DNA from: Promethearchaeota archaeon
GTDB taxonomy: Archaea; Asgardarchaeota; Lokiarchaeia; Sigyniarchaeales; SOKP01
Reading direction: 5' to 3'
DNA: 43,261 nt
Assembly (NCBI GenBank): GCA_016840085.1
Contig: JAEOTA010000079.1
Location: forward strand, 1-43,261
Positions 1,959-19,433 of the stretch are shown here, piece after piece. The position numbers and the translations under genes are program-made. The notes under the pieces were generated by a model, which was not told the origin of the DNA, ran no database searches, and saw nothing but the letters and a program-made list of their open reading frames with translations. Within the stretch, counting starts at the first letter, position 1. Each line of letters opens with the position of its first letter.

Positions 1959-4916
1959 ATGTCAAATCGGAGTCTTACTGGAATAGATAAACGGGAACTC
2001 CAATATTATGAAGGATTAGAAATTGGGGCAGTATCTGTAAAATGGGTTCGAAGAACTATTAATGGTGTGGTAGCAAGTGAGGTTGTACGACACGAAGGTT
2101 CTCCTAGGAAAAAGATAAAAGAAATATTTAAACGTTATAATGTTGATACTAATTCAAAAATCGTAATAACTGGTCAAGCTACAAGTAGTTTTCTCAATTT
2201 ACCATATGTTTCAGAAGTAGAATGCCTAGAAAAGGCTTTATCCTTCTATAATCTTAAACCTGACATTCTACTCTCACTTGGAGGAGAAACTTTTAGCGTT
2301 TATCCAATGAAAAACGGCATAATAAAAAATATTATTTCAACTTCGAAATGTGCTGCTGGTACGGGTGAGTTCATTGTCCAACAACTTCAAAGGATGGGAT
2401 TATCTGTTGAGGAGGGAATTAAAGCCAGTTTATATGGTAGTTTCACCCAATTGGCAACAAGATGTTCCGTTCATTGTAAATCCGATGCTACTCATAAACT
2501 CAATAAGGGTGAATGCAAACCTGAAGATATAGTAAAAACTTTAATCTATGACTTAGCAAGAAAGGTAGGTGAGATGATAGAAGCAGCTCAATGGTCCACA
2601 CGGCTAATTGTAATATCTGGGGGAGTTGCTTTAAATAAAGTCTTCATTGAGAATCTTCGTGGTTTTTTAAAGGATTCAGAAATTATTGTATTGCCAGAAA
2701 GTGCTTTCCTCGAAGTATTTGGAGCATCTTTATACGCATCCGAATTACAAAATTCATTCTTCCTTCGTGATGATTGGTTTAAATCATCGAAAGTTGAGTT
2801 TCAAACTCAAGAACGACTTAAGAAAGCAGAATCTCTTCTGGATTACCGTGTTAACACAGACAGTAATATAAAAATAAGGGTTGGAGAAAAATATATCCTT
2901 GGTATAGATGCAGGTTCTACTACTACTAAAGCTGTATTATTTAACATTTCAAACGATTCAGTAGGGGCAAGTGTTTATTTAAGAACATTGGGAAATCCTA
3001 TAGTAGCGACTAAACATTGTATCAATAAACTTATGGAAAAAGTAGGTAATAACTCTATAAAAATAATTCAATGTGGGGTAACAGGTTCTGCTAGAGAGAT
3101 GGTATCAGTTTATTTAGATAATAGTCGAAGTTTTAATGAGATACTAGCACATGCAAGATCCGCTACTGAAGAACTCCCAGATGTTGATACTGTATTTGAA
3201 ATTGGTGGCCAAGATTCAAAATTTATTTCATTTTTAAATGGTGTGCCGGTTGATTATGCGATGAATGAAGGATGCTCTGCAGGGACTGGCAGCTTTCTTG
3301 AGGAATCCGCATCAGTTGATATGGGCATAGCTGTAGAGGATATAAGTGACATAGCGACAAAAAGCACTCACCCAATAGCATTTGGTGAACGATGTGCCGC
3401 CTTTATTAATACTGATTTAAGGAATGCCCTTCAACAGGGAGCTAATCTAGAAGATGTTGTTGCTGGTTTAGTTTATTCAATTGCTGATAATTATATTTCA
3501 CGTATTGTTGGTTCCCGTCAAATAGGGAAAAATCTTCTTTTTCTTGGAGGAGTTGCTCTTAATAGATCTGTTGCTTTAGCTATTGCTACTCGTTCACAGC
3601 GAAAAGTAGTTGTTCCTGCACATCCTGAACTTATGGGGGCTGTGGGTACAGCTCTTATGACAAGGGATCTTCTACAAAATAATGTTATATCTGAAGAAAA
3701 TTATAAACTCAAGAATCTTACAAAAGGGGAAATACAAATCAAAAATACTTTTAGATGTAAAGTATGTGAAAACAATTGTGAAATTCAGAGAATTTCGATA
3801 AGAGGAAAAGTTTATCCATTTGGAGGTTTATGTTCTAAATATAAATTATTACGACAAAAAGGTGCAAAAGTTAAGGAAGGTCAAGATCTTATCGAATTAA
3901 GGAATAAAATGATAATTGAAGAATTCGGAGCCAAATCTTTAAAGAATCCTCGTGGCACGATAGGTATACCTATGGCTTTAACTTCTCATAGACTTTTCCC
4001 TCTATATGCAAAATTCATTAATGAGCTTGGTTATAATGTAATGTTATCAAATCCTTCAAAAACAGGTAACACTAAGACAAAAGCACCTATTTGTTATCCC
4101 TGTGAATTAGTTCATGGAGCAGTAAATGATCTTATTAATCGTAATGTTGATTATATTTTCTTACCTCATGTAATTGAAATGGAAATACCAAAAGGTTTTA
4201 TTCATGGATATACATGCCCTTCTACAACAACTATTCCAGATATCATTCGCGCAGCTTTTGAGAATGCAAGTGAAAAGATATTAGCACCTCATATTGGTAT
4301 CTCAGAAGATCTTATAGAAACAACGTTGAAGGAGTTTGGAAAAGTTGCTCGTTTATTAGGATTAGATTATAAAATGGGCATTAATGCAGGTTTTATAGCT
4401 TTATCTCACTACAAAATGTTCAGAGAAATATATAACGAATTTGGTAGAGGAAAATTGAGGGATTTATTAAAAAAACCCTCTGTAATTATTGCTGGAAGAC
4501 CTTATGTTGTTTATCCACCAGATGTGAATATAGCACTCCCTCGTAAGATCGTTAGCAGAGGATATAATGCTATTCCCTCTGATCTCTTACCTCTTTTAAA
4601 AGATGAAGCACCTCATTCAAGGAATGTATGGAGTTTTACTCAAGAGATCAATAATGCTGTCGAATATGTAAAAAAATACCCCAACTTATACATCTGTTTT
4701 GTTTCTTGCTTCTCTTGCGGTCCTGATGGTACAATGTATCATCATTATAGACAACAACTTGAAGGACACACGTTCTGTTACCTTGAAATAGATTCTCATA
4801 CGGCCCATGCTGGTTTTGAAACAAGAGTAGAAGCCTTTCTTGATATTATTGAAGAACGTCATCGAAAGAAAAATAAGGATATTAAGAATTTATTAAATCA
4901 AAGTATAACTGTCTAA
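1959..4916 (+). CDS. PlsA/Ger-like acyl-CoA dehydratase activase: two BadF/BadG/BcrA/BcrD ATPase domains plus DUF2229-type domain
   Basis: Domain 1: GLEIGAVSVK, KCAAGTGEF, RCSVHC, SGGVALN. Domain 2: GIDAGSTTTK, EIGGQDSK, MNEGCSAGTGSF, RCAAF. Linker CKVCENNC. C-terminal IGIPMAL, CYPC, YTCP, FSCGPD, LEIDSHTAHAGFETRVEAF. Confidence 0.9.
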   Translation: MSNRSLTGIDKRELQYYEGLEIGAVSVKWVRRTINGVVASEVVRHEGSPRKKIKEIFKRYNVDTNSKIVITGQATSSFLNLPYVSEVECLEKALSFYNLKPDILLSLGGETFSVYPMKNGIIKNIISTSKCAAGTGEFIVQQLQRMGLSVEEGIKASLYGSFTQLATRCSVHCKSDATHKLNKGECKPEDIVKTLIYDLARKVGEMIEAAQWSTRLIVISGGVALNKVFIENLRGFLKDSEIIVLPESAFLEVFGASLYASELQNSFFLRDDWFKSSKVEFQTQERLKKAESLLDYRVNTDSNIKIRVGEKYILGIDAGSTTTKAVLFNISNDSVGASVYLRTLGNPIVATKHCINKLMEKVGNNSIKIIQCGVTGSAREMVSVYLDNSRSFNEILAHARSATEELPDVDTVFEIGGQDSKFISFLNGVPVDYAMNEGCSAGTGSFLEESASVDMGIAVEDISDIATKSTHPIAFGERCAAFINTDLRNALQQGANLEDVVAGLVYSIADNYISRIVGSRQIGKNLLFLGGVALNRSVALAIATRSQRKVVVPAHPELMGAVGTALMTRDLLQNNVISEENYKLKNLTKGEIQIKNTFRCKVCENNCEIQRISIRGKVYPFGGLCSKYKLLRQKGAKVKEGQDLIELRNKMIIEEFGAKSLKNPRGTIGIPMALTSHRLFPLYAKFINELGYNVMLSNPSKTGNTKTKAPICYPCELVHGAVNDLINRNVDYIFLPHVIEMEIPKGFIHGYTCPSTTTIPDIIRAAFENASEKILAPHIGISEDLIETTLKEFGKVARLLGLDYKMGINAGFIALSHYKMFREIYNEFGRGKLRDLLKKPSVIIAGRPYVVYPPDVNIALPRKIVSRGYNAIPSDLLPLLKDEAPHSRNVWSFTQEINNAVEYVKKYPNLYICFVSCFSCGPDGTMYHHYRQQLEGHTFCYLEIDSHTAHAGFETRVEAFLDIIEERHRKKNKDIKNLLNQSITV

Positions 4917-4919
4917 AAA

Positions 4920-6326
4920 ATGACCGAAATAGAACAATTTAAAGATTTAAAAGCAGATGACCCAAATAAAGTCAAACAAACTCGATTTTCAAAAGATCAT
5001 AAATACATCATTGACAGTGATGGTCAGAAAGTTGAATTTGATGATCCTAGGATTGTGTATATCAACCCAGAACCTCGTAATCCATATGGAAGACGACTAG
5101 TTATAAATTTATTCAAAAAATATAACCGCAACATTAGGATCAGCAAAGAAACTGATGCATCTATTTTACAATATGCCAAAAAGATTTGCTCTGGAAGGGA
5201 ATGTCTTGCGAGTATTGCTATAGCAGGGGCAGTCTTAAAGGATATAAATGAATATAGGGATGAAAATGAAATCAGTATTTATCGAACTCCAATAGATCAA
5301 CATGGTCCATGCCAAAATGGAGCATGGCCAGTTCTTTGGGAGACATTTGCAAAGAGGTTAAATTTGAAAAATGTAATTTTTTGTGCTTTTCCTAAGTATA
5401 CTAACAATTATTTAGGGTTGAATCGCGATTTATTAGCATGGGAAAACATTAATTTTATCGTAGGACAATATATTATTGAAGCACGGAACGCTTTGCAATG
5501 TGTTGCTGAAAACAAAATTATAGCTTTGGAGAAATTTGAAGATTTAACAAGTGAATTTATCAATAATATAAAAGAAGGAAAGAAAACACTGAATACAGGT
5601 TTAATAAAATGGGCAAAAGAAGTTGCGAAAATACCTCTTAAAGCAAAAGTTGATGAAACCCCAAAAGTATTAATTTTTGGAGGTTTAAACTTAATGTTTG
5701 ATCATTATCCAATAGAGGAATTTTTTCTTGAAAGAGGAATTATTACCAAAGTTGTTGATATAGTTGAATCGATGAGTCTAATTTTAGCCGAAAGTACTAT
5801 AAGATATGGATTTAAAAAAGGAATATTAACTCCAAAAGAACAATTTAGTGAGCAATTACTGGATTCTACTGATTTGGATGAAAATGATAGAAAAGAAGCT
5901 CTAAGAGCAAAAAGAAATAAAAGTGCTTTAAAATTCTTAAATTCGCAATGTAAAACTTTTAGAAAAATTATGGGAAAATCAGGATTATTGTTTGACTCAT
6001 TTATAGATTTTATTGATCTCTTTGAAGAAGGAAATAAATATGTGTCTTCAAATAGCCTTAGTGAAACTCCAATAATAACTGGTAGATTTTTACATTCAAT
6101 TGAGGAAGGCATCTACGATGGTTTGATCAATTTAGGGACTTTTAATTGTCAACCGGCAATGAACTCACAGGCTATTATACGCCCTCTAGCTAATAAGTGT
6201 GATATTCCATACGCAGCAATAGACTGTGAAGGTCCGTGGATTTCTACGAATCAACTCAGGCTTCTTGAAACCATTGCCATTCAAGCTAAGAGAGAAAGAA
6301 AAATAAAGAACGAATTATTAGCTTAA
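4920..6326 (+). CDS. PlsR-like reductase/dehydratase partner subunit (2-hydroxyacyl-CoA dehydratase-related)
   Basis: Starts 3 nt after the upstream stop; Cys motifs GRECL, GPCQNG and FNCQP match the C-terminal module of this family. Confidence 0.75.
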   Translation: MTEIEQFKDLKADDPNKVKQTRFSKDHKYIIDSDGQKVEFDDPRIVYINPEPRNPYGRRLVINLFKKYNRNIRISKETDASILQYAKKICSGRECLASIAIAGAVLKDINEYRDENEISIYRTPIDQHGPCQNGAWPVLWETFAKRLNLKNVIFCAFPKYTNNYLGLNRDLLAWENINFIVGQYIIEARNALQCVAENKIIALEKFEDLTSEFINNIKEGKKTLNTGLIKWAKEVAKIPLKAKVDETPKVLIFGGLNLMFDHYPIEEFFLERGIITKVVDIVESMSLILAESTIRYGFKKGILTPKEQFSEQLLDSTDLDENDRKEALRAKRNKSALKFLNSQCKTFRKIMGKSGLLFDSFIDFIDLFEEGNKYVSSNSLSETPIITGRFLHSIEEGIYDGLINLGTFNCQPAMNSQAIIRPLANKCDIPYAAIDCEGPWISTNQLRLLETIAIQAKRERKIKNELLA

Positions 6327-15602: not shown

Positions 15603-15815
15603 CTAAAAAGAAGAGTTTCCTTTATTTCCAGTCATGATTAATTCTTTATTTTTTTCCTTTGCTTGTATTTCTGATATTTCTATAGCCTCAATGATTCTTT
15701 TATTTAATTCATCTAAGGATTTCGCTTGTGTATGACAACCTGGTAATTCAGGGACACTTGCAATGTAATATCCATCTTCATCCTGTTCAATGATAATATT
15801 AAACTCTTTTTTCAT
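15603..15815 (-). CDS. hicB: HicB-family antitoxin-like protein (orphan)
   Basis: IIIEQDEDGYYIASVPELPGCHTQAKSLDEL...EAI signature; GAGGA SD. Confidence 0.8.
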   Translation of the reverse strand: MKKEFNIIIEQDEDGYYIASVPELPGCHTQAKSLDELNKRIIEAIEISEIQAKEKNKELIMTGNKGNSSF

Positions 15816-16260
15816 TAGCTTCCTCTTATTTAATATAAAAAGTTAAAATTAATCTTATTTAATCATCTAATAGTAATATAGATTAATATTTTTATTTAAA
15901 GATGTAAAAAATATTTTAAAATAAAGAATCATCATCTTTTATTTAACTCTTACAAATATCTTTTGATATCAAGCTATTGGATTATGATTTGTTAAAACTG
16001 AACTATACATATATAAATTACTTAGATTTAATATTTTTGTTCGATATTACCCAAAAATCTCAGAATTATTAAAAAAAATCGTATTTTTTAATAGCTTATA
16101 ATATCTTTGATAATGTTATTTAATCAAAAAATTATTTAAGTAAAATTCTATAATATAACTCAACATTTAACAATAATTTAAATCATTACATTAAAAATTT
16201 TAATAAAAAACATTAAAGCTAAAAGTTAACAAATATAACATAGAGGAAATCACCCAAAAA

Positions 16261-17451
16261 ATGATAATCTCGTTCCCAAATATGGGACCCAATTGGGTTG
16301 CGTTTAAAACATTGTTTGAAACCTTAGATCCATCGATTAAAGTAGTAGTGCCCGATCCTACCAATCGTGAGGCAATCAAAATCGGCGTAAAATATAGTCC
16401 GGAATTTGTGTGTTTTCCATTTAAAGCCACTTTGGGAGATTTTGTAAATGCAATTAAAAAGGGTGCTGATACTTTAGTGATGGCTATAGATTGCGGACCA
16501 TGTCGTTTCGGATTTTATCACGCAGTTCAAGAAAGGCTCCTTCATGATATGGGATATAAAAATGTGAGAGTAATCCCTTTAGACCAGGCAGATCTCTTGG
16601 AATTTCACTGGGTCAAAACTCTCCAAGAAGTTAGTGATATAAGCGGTCTTTTTGCATATCCTCGGTATTTAAAAGCAGTGATCTTTTTCTTGAAAAAAGC
16701 TAAGTTCTTACATGATATTCAGACTGCTGAAGGGTTATTCCGCGCATATGAACGAAATCAAGGAGATACTACCCGTGTATTAAATAACTTATTAAATAAA
16801 CTTGATCAAACTAATACTCTTACAGAATTACGTAATTTTAAGAATGTCATTAAAGAAGACTTTAATTCAATTGATGTTGACAAAACAAGAACTCCTCTAC
16901 GGGTTGCAATATTTGGTGAAATTCATATTAGTTTAGAGCCATATGTTAATGTGGATATTCGTAGAAAACTTGGAGAATTAGGAGTTGAAGTTCACCAAAA
17001 TTTAAGCCTTAAAGATTGGGTTTATCATAAATTTCACCTTAATTTTCACCGTAAGTGGCTTGAACATTTAGCACATCCGTATATGCCAATGGATATTGGA
17101 GGAGAATGCTTATGGGTAATTGGTGAATATATAGATAGAGCCCAAAGTGGTTTTAGTGGGGCGACCCATATATACCCCTTCACGTGCATGCCCGAAGTGA
17201 CTGCCAGGACAATTATAACTAATAAATTAAAGAAAATGTACGATCTCCCCATAATATTTTTCTCTTTTGATGAGCAAACTGGAATAGAAGGAATGCGTAC
17301 GCGCCTCGAAGCATTTGTTGATCTAATGAATTCAAGACGCAACCATAAATTAAAGACTGAAAAATTTTCCCTTGAAAAAGAAAAGAAGAGTTTTTATGAA
17401 TCAAATGGATCCCATTTTTTTCATGAATGTGTTGAATTATTGCTAACATAA
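16261..17451 (+). CDS. PlsR-like / 'CoA protein activase' reductase-dehydratase subunit
   Basis: ISFPNMG, SPEFVCFPFK, GPCRFGFY, GEI, PFTCMPE and FDEQTG...TRLEAFVD motifs. Confidence 0.85.
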   Translation: MIISFPNMGPNWVAFKTLFETLDPSIKVVVPDPTNREAIKIGVKYSPEFVCFPFKATLGDFVNAIKKGADTLVMAIDCGPCRFGFYHAVQERLLHDMGYKNVRVIPLDQADLLEFHWVKTLQEVSDISGLFAYPRYLKAVIFFLKKAKFLHDIQTAEGLFRAYERNQGDTTRVLNNLLNKLDQTNTLTELRNFKNVIKEDFNSIDVDKTRTPLRVAIFGEIHISLEPYVNVDIRRKLGELGVEVHQNLSLKDWVYHKFHLNFHRKWLEHLAHPYMPMDIGGECLWVIGEYIDRAQSGFSGATHIYPFTCMPEVTARTIITNKLKKMYDLPIIFFSFDEQTGIEGMRTRLEAFVDLMNSRRNHKLKTEKFSLEKEKKSFYESNGSHFFHECVELLLT

Positions 17452-17466
17452 TAAAATTGTGATTAA

Positions 17467-18504
17467 ATGGTACAGGTACAAGTGTCAGAAGCTGACAAGG
17501 TTATAAGTGACGATGGAAAGCAGGATGCTTTTCTTGGAATTGATATTGGGAGTGTAACCTGTAAATTTGTGTTGATGGATAGAGATGGGAATGTTCTGAG
17601 TTCTGTTTTCTTACGTAATCGGGGCTCTCCGATAGAATCGGCTAAAGCTGGGATGGCAGAATTAAGGGAAAATATTGAGCAGAGTGATGAATTACAAGAA
17701 TATGCAATACGCAGTTGTGGAACGACAGGTTCGGCAAGATATTTAACGAAAGCGGTAGTTGGAGGAGATCTTGCTAAAACAGAGATTATTGCCCATGCTG
17801 TAGCTACACAATCTATAATTCCAGATGTAAGAACTATTTTAGAAATCGGGGGACAGGACTCAAAAATAATAATTCTTCGAGATGGTATTATTATAGATTT
17901 TGCGATGAATTCTGTATGTGCTGCGGGAACAGGTTCTTTCCTTGATCATCAAGCTGCGAGACTTGGAATCCCAATCGAAGATTTTGGTGATTATGCGATA
18001 AAGTCCAAAAATCCGGTAAGTATTGCAGGAAGATGTACTGTATTTGCCGAATCTGATATGATCCATAAGCAGAATGCGGGTTATTCAAGAGAAGATATCA
18101 TTGCTGGGCTCTGTGATTCGTTGGTAAGAAATTATATGAATAATTTATCTAAAGGGAAGGAATTAGAGGAACCTATTGCATTTCAAGGAGGAGTCTCTTA
18201 TAATAAAGGAATTATTCAAGCATTTGAAAGGCATTTAGGTTGTAAGATTATTGTTCCTAAATATAATGTATTAATGGGGGCTTTGGGAATGGCTATCCTC
18301 GTAAGAGATTATTATATAGAACATCCAACAGAAACACTCTTCCGAGGTCTCCAGGTTGCTGAAATTGAATTTACAACAAGTGCATTCAATTGTGGTGATT
18401 GTCCAAACAATTGTGAGATTGTACAGGTCAAAATGCCTGAATTTGGGAATAAAATAATAGCACGCTGGGGCAGTAGATGCGGAAAATGGGACCAGCTAAC
18501 TTAG
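17467..18504 (+). CDS. Single-domain acyl-CoA dehydratase activase (BadF/BadG/BcrA/BcrD ATPase, [4Fe-4S])
   Basis: GIDIGSVTCK, TTGSAR, EIGGQDSK, MNSVCAAGTGSFLD, RCTVFAESD, QGGV and C-terminal CGDCPNNC...RC. Confidence 0.9.
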   Translation: MVQVQVSEADKVISDDGKQDAFLGIDIGSVTCKFVLMDRDGNVLSSVFLRNRGSPIESAKAGMAELRENIEQSDELQEYAIRSCGTTGSARYLTKAVVGGDLAKTEIIAHAVATQSIIPDVRTILEIGGQDSKIIILRDGIIIDFAMNSVCAAGTGSFLDHQAARLGIPIEDFGDYAIKSKNPVSIAGRCTVFAESDMIHKQNAGYSREDIIAGLCDSLVRNYMNNLSKGKELEEPIAFQGGVSYNKGIIQAFERHLGCKIIVPKYNVLMGALGMAILVRDYYIEHPTETLFRGLQVAEIEFTTSAFNCGDCPNNCEIVQVKMPEFGNKIIARWGSRCGKWDQLT

Positions 18505-18521
18505 AAGGTGTATAAAGGAAA

Positions 18522-18716
18522 ATGGCAGAATTTTTAAAACAAATAAAAGAGTTGGGTGAAGAGGTTTTTGAGACTCTACAACATAAGACGAAGTTATCGA
18601 CAATTTTTGACCTTTTTTTAGAAAAGGTTATTCCTACATTTGTATCCGAAAAGGATTTAAAAGAGTATTATGAAAAAAGAACGGAAGAAGTTGATGATTT
18701 TATAGATAAATTATAA
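18522..18716 (+). CDS. Small acidic helical hypothetical protein
   Basis: 64-aa ORF filling the gap in an apparent operon (17 and 18 nt spacers). Confidence 0.65.
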   Translation: MAEFLKQIKELGEEVFETLQHKTKLSTIFDLFLEKVIPTFVSEKDLKEYYEKRTEEVDDFIDKL

Positions 18717-18734
18717 TAAGAGGTAATAAAAAAA

Positions 18735-19433
18735 ATGAGTGAAAGTACAAGTCCGGAAAGTTCAGAAGATTCTGATAAGGTAAATATGAAGGTTGTTGCG
18801 TTTGATATGCTTTATGCCGCAGTAAAAGGCTTAAGTGGGTTATTTTTTAAAACCTTCATGGGTTTGAAAATCGAGGGAGAAACAAATATCCCGTTGAGAG
18901 GAAAAGCTATCTTAACTACAGTTACTCCAAATATCATCCGTGATATGCTTATTATTAGTCAAGTAACAGGTCGTAAAATTCATTTTATGCTTGATCCTAA
19001 ATTAATGAAGCATCAAATTGCGGGACCAGTTTTAAAGTCACTTGGAATGATTCGTGGAACGGAGAGTAAAGAAGACACAGAACCTATTGATAAAATTTTT
19101 GAAATATTAAATGAGAAGGGAGATCTTGTTGGTATGACTCCTGAAGCACGCCATGATCGTGAAGTGCAGGTGAAATCGATGGCAGCAATAATAAAGTTTG
19201 CGATTGTTGGAGAAGCTCCAATTATTCCGATAGCCATCTATACTGAGAAAATAAAGATTTTAAACATGTTTAATGGAGATGGCATTAAAGTAAAGGTTGG
19301 TACACCATTAAATGTCGAAAAGCGATTGAATCGAGAGAAATATCGAGCTGAACGCTATGAACTGGCTGAAGATATAATAAATATTATTGACTCTCTTAAA
19401 GAAACACCTGAAATCGAAGAAAGTGAACTATAA
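18735..19433 (+). CDS. PlsC-like lysophospholipid acyltransferase-fold protein with degenerate catalytic motif
   Basis: KIEGETNIP..GKAIL, RKIHFM, PEA (for PEG), APIIPIAI and VKVGTPL blocks; the HX4D position reads TVTPNIIRD; GAGGT SD. Confidence 0.75.
   Translation: MSESTSPESSEDSDKVNMKVVAFDMLYAAVKGLSGLFFKTFMGLKIEGETNIPLRGKAILTTVTPNIIRDMLIISQVTGRKIHFMLDPKLMKHQIAGPVLKSLGMIRGTESKEDTEPIDKIFEILNEKGDLVGMTPEARHDREVQVKSMAAIIKFAIVGEAPIIPIAIYTEKIKILNMFNGDGIKVKVGTPLNVEKRLNREKYRAERYELAEDIINIIDSLKETPEIEESEL

Follow-up and report, generated by a model that had tools for sequence, protein, structure and literature searches.

What is the substrate of an ATP-driven reductase whose genes run, in an archaeon, straight into a gene for a protein with the fold of a glycerolipid acyltransferase? 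The question is raised by four genes in a stretch of 43,261 nucleotides (nt), the whole of which is called here the window, from a Promethearchaeota archaeon of the Lokiarchaeia (GenBank assembly GCA_016840085.1, contig JAEOTA010000079.1, forward strand). The original prediction, made from the sequence of the window, took them for a split PlsAR-like unit acting on glycerolipids. Comparison of gene order across genomes indicates that the four genes are the 3' part of a larger, order-wide Lokiarchaeial operon, composed of HAD phosphatase-tandem PlsC-Red1-R-A-S-C, and on balance we lean towards the view that this operon performs ester-to-ether reduction of acyl-glycerolipids. The four genes, with their products in amino acids (aa), are:

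16261..17451, + strand: R, 396 aa, Red2-type [4Fe-4S] reductase/dehydratase subunit, PlsR-like (Pfam DUF2229 and weak HGD-D; maps to Red2)
17467..18504, + strand: A, 345 aa, single-domain ATP-dependent activase, the electron donor (PF01869, TIGR00241)
18522..18716, + strand: S, 64 aa, acidic, likely an accessory subunit bound to R; family unassigned in Pfam
18735..19433, + strand: C, 232 aa, pseudo-acyltransferase of the PlsC/GPAT fold, lacking the catalytic His (PF01553)

The reading frames are confirmed as four co-oriented genes, with spacers of 15, 17 and 18 nt (R/A, A/S and S/C), and the identities first given to their products (a PlsR-like subunit, a single-domain activase, an acidic protein of 64 aa with a pI of 4.69, and an acyltransferase-fold protein) are upheld by Pfam, isoelectric point and fold. 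Conservation of the neighborhood, the check that had been proposed, is found in Lokiarchaeia loci from other genomes: the order R-A-S-C is kept in 30 of the 35 that can be evaluated and is tightly packed in 24. By this conservation of order the arrangement exceeds chance. Median ratios of nonsynonymous to synonymous substitution (dN/dS) of 0.058 for R, 0.044 for A, 0.088 for S and 0.081 for C speak of purifying selection on all four, and because it acts on S too, that short reading frame is a real gene. Of the named relatives, nearly all come from Promethearchaeota, that is, from Lokiarchaeia. A scan for sigma-70 promoters and terminators, using a model ill-suited to archaea, gave chance-level matches only.

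The idea that the four genes form a split PlsAR-like unit holds in part. Their modules do map onto the fused proteins, but the enzyme they encode is incomplete. PlsAR requires two activation and two reduction modules (PMC12838417), and since the four genes supply only one reduction module, the unit exceeds them. Red1, with its DUF2229 domain, is found on contig C24 of the same genome, and one stretch of the window is also of concern here:

C24:205-1272: D (Red1), 355 aa, the genome's other stand-alone DUF2229 protein, 205 nt from the contig end
C24:1293-2954: PP (tandem PlsC), 553 aa, two acyltransferase domains, both complete, with HX4D and PEGT in each; D directly follows PP
C24:9415-10143: HAD phosphatase, on the same contig as D and PP
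Window 15816..16260, no strand: AT-rich stretch upstream of R, 445 nt, 16% GC; the position of Red1 in the inferred ancestral layout

In 69 of 76 loci of relatives, PP comes before D at a distance of no more than 600 nt, and in 15 of 40 evaluable loci Red1 is directly upstream of R, which follows within 1 kb. The whole series HAD-PP-D-R-A-S-C is contiguous in at least ten loci (L096, L097, L107, L112, L113, L115, L121, L125, L133 and L144). It had been claimed that the link to the PlsC fold of C is the best contextual evidence in the window for a glycerolipid substrate. The glycerolipid context stands, but its stronger evidence is the intact tandem PlsC beside Red1, not C.

In the source genus other genes intervene between D and R. 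A contig of that genus (L176) carries PP-D-985 aa-468 aa-homologues of window genes 6346-9853-...-R-A-S-C, and the window shows the same order. Because the two orders match, C24 is placed at the window's left end, and PP-D most likely lies just left of the window; no overlap in sequence between C24 and the window was found, and the adjacency rests on synteny. Judged in this way, the operon in this genome is split by insertions.

What kind of enzyme do D, R and A make? A matches BcrAD_BadFG (E 8e-46; PF01869 and TIGR00241), and C151 and C190, the two cluster cysteines that it shares with HgdC-type activases, are invariant. Four more (C309/C312/C316/C338) are invariant in its C-terminal tail, and a four-Cys tail likewise follows Act2 of the fused proteins. 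The domain, the cluster cysteines and the tail that mark the activase of PlsAR and Ger are therefore all present in A. The N-terminal part of R matches DUF2229 (E 1.9e-9); a match to HGD-D is below the cut-off and covers only about 50-60 residues, short of a full-length HGD-D subunit. R has three cysteines (C51, C81 and C309) invariant in 103 homologues, and a C-terminal extension missing from solo homologues. D, which lies outside the four genes, conserves C63/C101/C289, so that Red1 and Red2 are both found, each with its three cysteines. Profiles map A to Act1/Act2, D to Red1 and R to Red2 of the 1400-aa fused proteins of the PlsA/Ger type.

The best fused relatives of A are 41-48% identical to it and include those of Thermodesulfobacterium geofontis and Ca. 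Kuenenia (Act2 44-46%), both named as ether producers with a modified PlsA (PMC8788747). These fused proteins were chosen by their likeness to A, a choice in which D and R played no part. D and R nonetheless score higher on them than on PlsA-type proteins of Listeria, Collinsella and Fusobacterium (for D, 1e-31 to 1e-49 against 1e-15 to 1e-21). By sequence, then, the split set is nearest to Ger-like proteins of alkyl-ether producers yet forms a sister subfamily.

The same proteins could be read as a soluble acyl-CoA dehydratase or reductase, of the kind of HgdCAB or benzoyl-CoA reductase, beside acyltransferases that are there by inherited order, without shared function. A single-domain activase with two three-Cys subunits is indeed the layout of HgdCAB, and in the PDB A and D have sequence relatives only among enzymes of that kind (HadI, HgdC and MbdQ in the case of A; a search with R gave nothing usable). 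Many D-R-A sets have no lipid neighbors, and the reductase may be lost while both acyltransferase genes remain. On the other hand, the identity of A is higher with Ger-like Act2 (46%) than with the HgdC-type activase of its own genome (33%), A has the four-Cys tail of PlsA-type proteins, D matches DUF2229 at E 2e-47, the link to PlsC is kept across two families, and there is a separate, canonical HgdCAB-like set in the genome. We regard a soluble CoA substrate as improbable. The HgdCAB-like set, canonical-looking with an activase and two dehydratase subunits, is at G000:C82:165-3406 (- strand), beside radical SAM-like genes.

We therefore return to ester-to-ether reduction. Genes, motifs, gene order, module map and the pattern of joint loss can be read off directly; from them we infer the following chemistry and complexes. 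The tandem PlsC would esterify acyl chains onto a glycerol-phosphate backbone, from which the HAD enzyme may take off the phosphate. A, as a homodimer with a bridging [4Fe-4S] cluster, would use ATP to drive low-potential electrons into a Red1-Red2 (D-R) heterodimer, in which D and R would each hold a three-Cys [4Fe-4S] cluster. Like PlsAR and Ger, the heterodimer would reduce the acyl ester, probably the one at sn-1, and yield a vinyl or an alkyl ether. The alkyl ether is slightly favored, since alkyl-ether producers are the source of the nearest fused relatives. S would be an accessory subunit clamped on R, possibly as a membrane anchor. C, which the reductase would not need, would serve the acyltransferase arm as a partner without catalytic activity that binds lipid or acyl-CoA. 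By inference from its modules, the split system would work like PlsAR and Ger, though its layout is not the one by which membership among them is judged.

Several observations weigh against this proposal. Two activation domains and Red1 in one chain, the BBD layout, are described as conserved in all ether producers (PMC13159169), but here A has a single domain and D is encoded separately. An unrooted tree, which has long branches and does not include the characterized enzymes, T. maritima Ger and C. perfringens PlsA, places the split activases outside the group of fused Act2 (support 94/99). The D-R-A sets read in two more Asgard families, and in some eight contexts that are bacterial or unassigned, showed no acyltransferase neighbor, and no assay of any split D-R-A system was found in the literature. 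Ether cleavage of lipids from the cultured strain MK-D1 gave, as reported, only phytane and biphytanes (PMC7015854). The present genome has no GpsA-grade, PlsX or clear CdsA match, and glycerol kinase appears only below the cut-off. Because neither GpsA nor glycerol kinase is found at sufficient grade, the supply of glycerol-3-phosphate is unclear. Matches to PlsY and to the GGGP-synthase family are present. The PlsY domain (G000:C20:4674-5204, - strand) is within an open frame of 402 residues that has a long C-terminal part.

An alternative that accommodates some of these points is that the operon acts on lipids without making membrane ethers. Acyltransferases and phosphatase would build or remodel acyl-glycerols (a storage lipid, a scavenged bacterial lipid, or a hybrid of isoprenoid ether and acyl ester), and D-R-A would reduce or dehydrate the acyl chain or the head group in some other radical reaction. 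The conserved linkage to PlsC, after all, fixes the class of substrate, not the reaction; the split subfamily is sister to fused PlsA/Ger and not inside it; only isoprenoid ethers are reported for MK-D1; chimeric lipids have been proposed for Lokiarchaeota (PMC6737245); and one paralogous Red1 carries a fused FAD-binding domain. Ester-to-ether reduction is, however, the sole reaction shown for DUF2229-containing systems in the literature found, and we consider the alternative unlikely, if less so than a soluble substrate.

Is C, then, a part of the reductase? It had been cast as a lipid-presenting subunit. C matches Acyltransferase PF01553 (E 1.1e-7), and its model (pLDDT 83) has the glycerolipid acyltransferase fold, its best match being T. 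maritima PlsC, 5kym (Foldseek E 1.3e-6; VIA Z 15.1, root-mean-square deviation 4.0, 182 residues aligned); a PDB search by sequence gave nothing usable. The His of HX4D serves as general base in the PlsC/GPAT family. Block I of C has no conserved His, one being found at variable position 65 in only 6 of 121 homologues, and so lacks HX4D. D70, P136 and E137 are invariant in the 121, and of FPEGTR in block III the Pro-Glu is kept and the remainder replaced. Because the general base is missing, C is most likely not an acyltransferase. A tree of PlsC domains puts it on a long branch with no clear parent.

C could still be a dedicated subunit that presents lipid within a four-protein complex, R-A-S-C. 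The spacing between S and C is tight in 24 of 35 loci, Arg/Lys107 of block II and E137 are retained, and an unrelated His-less PlsC domain precedes Red1 in L. ossiferum and two relatives. But five genomes that are 89-100% complete (G077, G157, G247, G260 and G261) have an intact C, with dN/dS of about 0.06, and no match to DUF2229. C is two genes after an intact PP in three of them, directly after PP in G247 and at a contig end in G261, so that it stands beside an active PlsC in all four in which the region is assembled. Conversely, the MK-D1 operon has the reductase and no His-less PlsC. The four genes R-A-S-C, moreover, themselves lack Red1. Because C outlasts the reductase, and the reductase of MK-D1 has no His-less PlsC in its operon, C goes with the acyltransferase and not with the reductase; it is probably not a reductase subunit. 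A lipid-presenting role for it is thus unsupported, and a four-protein complex built around it seems to us quite improbable. On the C tree the genomes lacking the reductase are found in several positions, a sign that the reductase may have been lost more than once.

S behaves differently. It was not found in the same five genomes, and it is predicted to bind R: folded with R and A, the S-R pair scores 0.71 against 0.29 for the best control. This mark is attained by 58 of 80 solved complexes but by only 2 of 110 mismatched pairs, figures that apply no more than roughly here. Runs share at least 69% of contacts, with pLDDT of the partners at least 59. The confident predicted contacts join residues 43-64 of S to 141-148, 187-194, 255-269 and 384-386 of R, none being listed with A, and the patch at 384-386 is in the tail that solo homologues lack. 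K145, K148, N261, W266 and F386 of the R interface are invariant, although interface residues overall are no more conserved than the rest of R (0.80 against 0.78) and so give no independent support for binding. Predicted binding together with loss alongside the reductase makes S likely to be a reductase subunit, in keeping with the adaptor that had been supposed.

S is 62-95% identical across 50 loci and is modeled with low confidence (pLDDT 69, pTM 0.35) as three helices, of which the first, N-terminal one is amphipathic. Pfam gives no match, searches of the Atlas by features or by shape nothing usable, and it presumably has no acyl-carrier-type motif. A match to RelB/ParD was rejected as weak and far below the cut-off. 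Comparison of S with the reading frames of 68-83 aa that follow A in the family of the cultured strains (hhalign probability 21%, E 0.001) is a positional lead only.

How widespread is the system? Homologues of R are carried by 41 of 45 genomes of the archaeon's own family and by 4 of 4 of the sister family; beyond these, the search found them in two more Asgard families and in none of the others covered. Of 105 family genomes, D is present in 87, C in 93 (single-copy in all but one) and S in 85. The D-R-A subfamily at large, counted at E below 1e-30, comprises 353 clusters. PlsC-linked activases from the two Lokiarchaeial families group in one clade of the activase tree (100/98), apart from the solo Asgard and bacterial sets, and for that reason the acyltransferase link marks one lineage and not the whole D-R-A subfamily.

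Two cultured strains are included. In P. syntrophicum MK-D1 the run reads PlsC(intact)-D-R-A-72 aa; that of L. ossiferum B35, PlsC(intact)-D-R-A-small, has an additional His-less PlsC. Their proteins are 49% (R), 61% (A) and 44% (D) identical to those of the present genome. The intact PlsC of MK-D1, directly upstream of D-R-A (L153:10072-10998), contrasts with the report that ester-lipid genes are lacking in this strain (PMC7015854). The second His-less PlsC-fold gene of this family lies between the active PlsC and D (L152:9244-10035, L137:9882-10691, L138:11428-12252). It is not closely related to C but groups, by long branches, with the C-terminal domain of PP.

Paralogous sets of these genes also occur. 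One, identified by Pfam, is in the window, and by synteny falls between D and R in this genus:

Window 1959..6326, + strand: fused set Act1-Act2-Red1 (985 aa) and a 468-aa Red2-like partner

The match of the 468-aa protein in the genome G196 is to the C-terminal third of a fused protein of 1448 aa. In some genomes a third set, D'-A'-R', is inserted between D and R, its D' fused to an N-terminal FAD-binding_4 domain (L146:10128-12641, - strand, and many relatives, in open frames of about 800-840 aa). The FAD domain was considered as AGPS-like and rejected, its best PDB matches being cytokinin dehydrogenases and AGPS a weak one. L. ossiferum and the related complete genome G196 have single-chain PlsA-type proteins of 1431-1482 aa (L159:4081-8529, L160:4576-8922, L161:4222-8517), one of them 36-40% identical to proteins of Listeria, Fusobacterium and Collinsella; these are probably the published 'Ger homologues' of Lokiarchaeota. 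The D-R junction is a hotspot of insertions and assembly breaks, many contigs stopping soon after D or starting soon before R (L057-L136, L001-L045). An ORF (open reading frame) of 70 aa upstream of R (window 15603-15815, - strand), found likewise in L003, L021 and L036, presumably resembles a HicB-type antitoxin. In one genus (L038-L045) an extra helical ORF of 63-106 aa comes just after C; the window is without it.

With the glycerol ester reductase Ger (Thermotoga maritima Tmari_0479, Desulfatibacillum alkenivorans; PMC13159169) the locus shares a BcrAD_BadFG activase, a DUF2229 Red1, a Red2 and the Fe-S cysteines. It differs in having three separate genes in the order D-R-A, one activase domain and a partner of 64 aa, and in sharing its operon with acyltransferases and a HAD phosphatase; the likeness was judged through fused proteins from Thermodesulfobacterium and Kuenenia, both with Ger-like genes, on which A, D and R score best. 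With the anaerobic plasmalogen synthase PlsA/PlsR of Clostridium perfringens, a single gene in Enterococcus, Lactococcus, Listeria and Collinsella (PMC12838417, PMC9702350), it shares Act and Red modules, R corresponding to PlsR/Red2. The PlsA-type proteins of Listeria, Collinsella and Fusobacterium are more remote (A 32-33%, D 23-24%, R 22-26%), and the locus lacks the Act1-Act2-Red1 fusion, a layout better fitted by the 985+468 pair of the window and the 1431-1482 aa proteins of cultured Lokiarchaea. The 2-hydroxyacyl-CoA dehydratase HgdCAB/HadIBC and class I benzoyl-CoA reductase have in common with it an activase of homodimeric type with two cluster cysteines and two three-Cys subunits, but the locus has DUF2229 in place of full HGD-D subunits, a four-Cys tail on its activase, and a lipid gene context. 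T. maritima PlsC (5kym) and C share, besides the fold, an N-terminal helix, the Asp of block I and the Pro-Glu of block III; C lacks the conserved catalytic His, has a one-residue insertion in block I, and has the Gly-Thr-Arg of block III replaced. Uncharacterized bacterial sets of DUF2229, 'CoA protein activase' and activase (for example in Monoglobus, Nitrospirota and Dehalococcoidia) have the split D-R-A order and the motifs (R 33% to Monoglobus), but no acyltransferase, S or C neighbor in the contexts read, and lack the C-terminal extension of R.

Non-isoprenoid lipids in Asgard archaea are an open question for the origin of eukaryotic membranes (PMC12993045), and plasmalogens are stated to be absent from archaea (PMC13012113). 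PlsC and PlsY genes (PMC6737245) and Ger homologues (PMC13159169) of Lokiarchaeota have already been published, separately from each other. We found no paper on the present split enzyme in one operon with acyltransferases, though three-gene pls forms may have been mentioned earlier. New here are the predicted S-R binding, the loss pattern by which C and the reductase come apart, and the closeness to Ger-like proteins.

It is possible, and we put it forward tentatively, that Lokiarchaeia, P. syntrophicum and L. ossiferum among them, have an order-wide pathway in which glycerol is acylated and the ester turned to ether by a split PlsA/Ger-like enzyme with a small subunit of its own. They would then make ester and ether lipids derived from fatty acids in vivo, as alkyl ethers, plasmalogens or hybrids with isoprenoids, and the pseudo-acyltransferase would regulate or channel acylation. 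With two cultured strains carrying the operon, and with homologous bacterial enzymes that are functional in E. coli, the question can be put to a direct test. If the proposal is true, it would give a first function to the widespread, uncharacterized D-R-A subfamily, and the operon would be a route, open to testing, by which archaea akin to the forebears of eukaryotes may form non-isoprenoid lipids.

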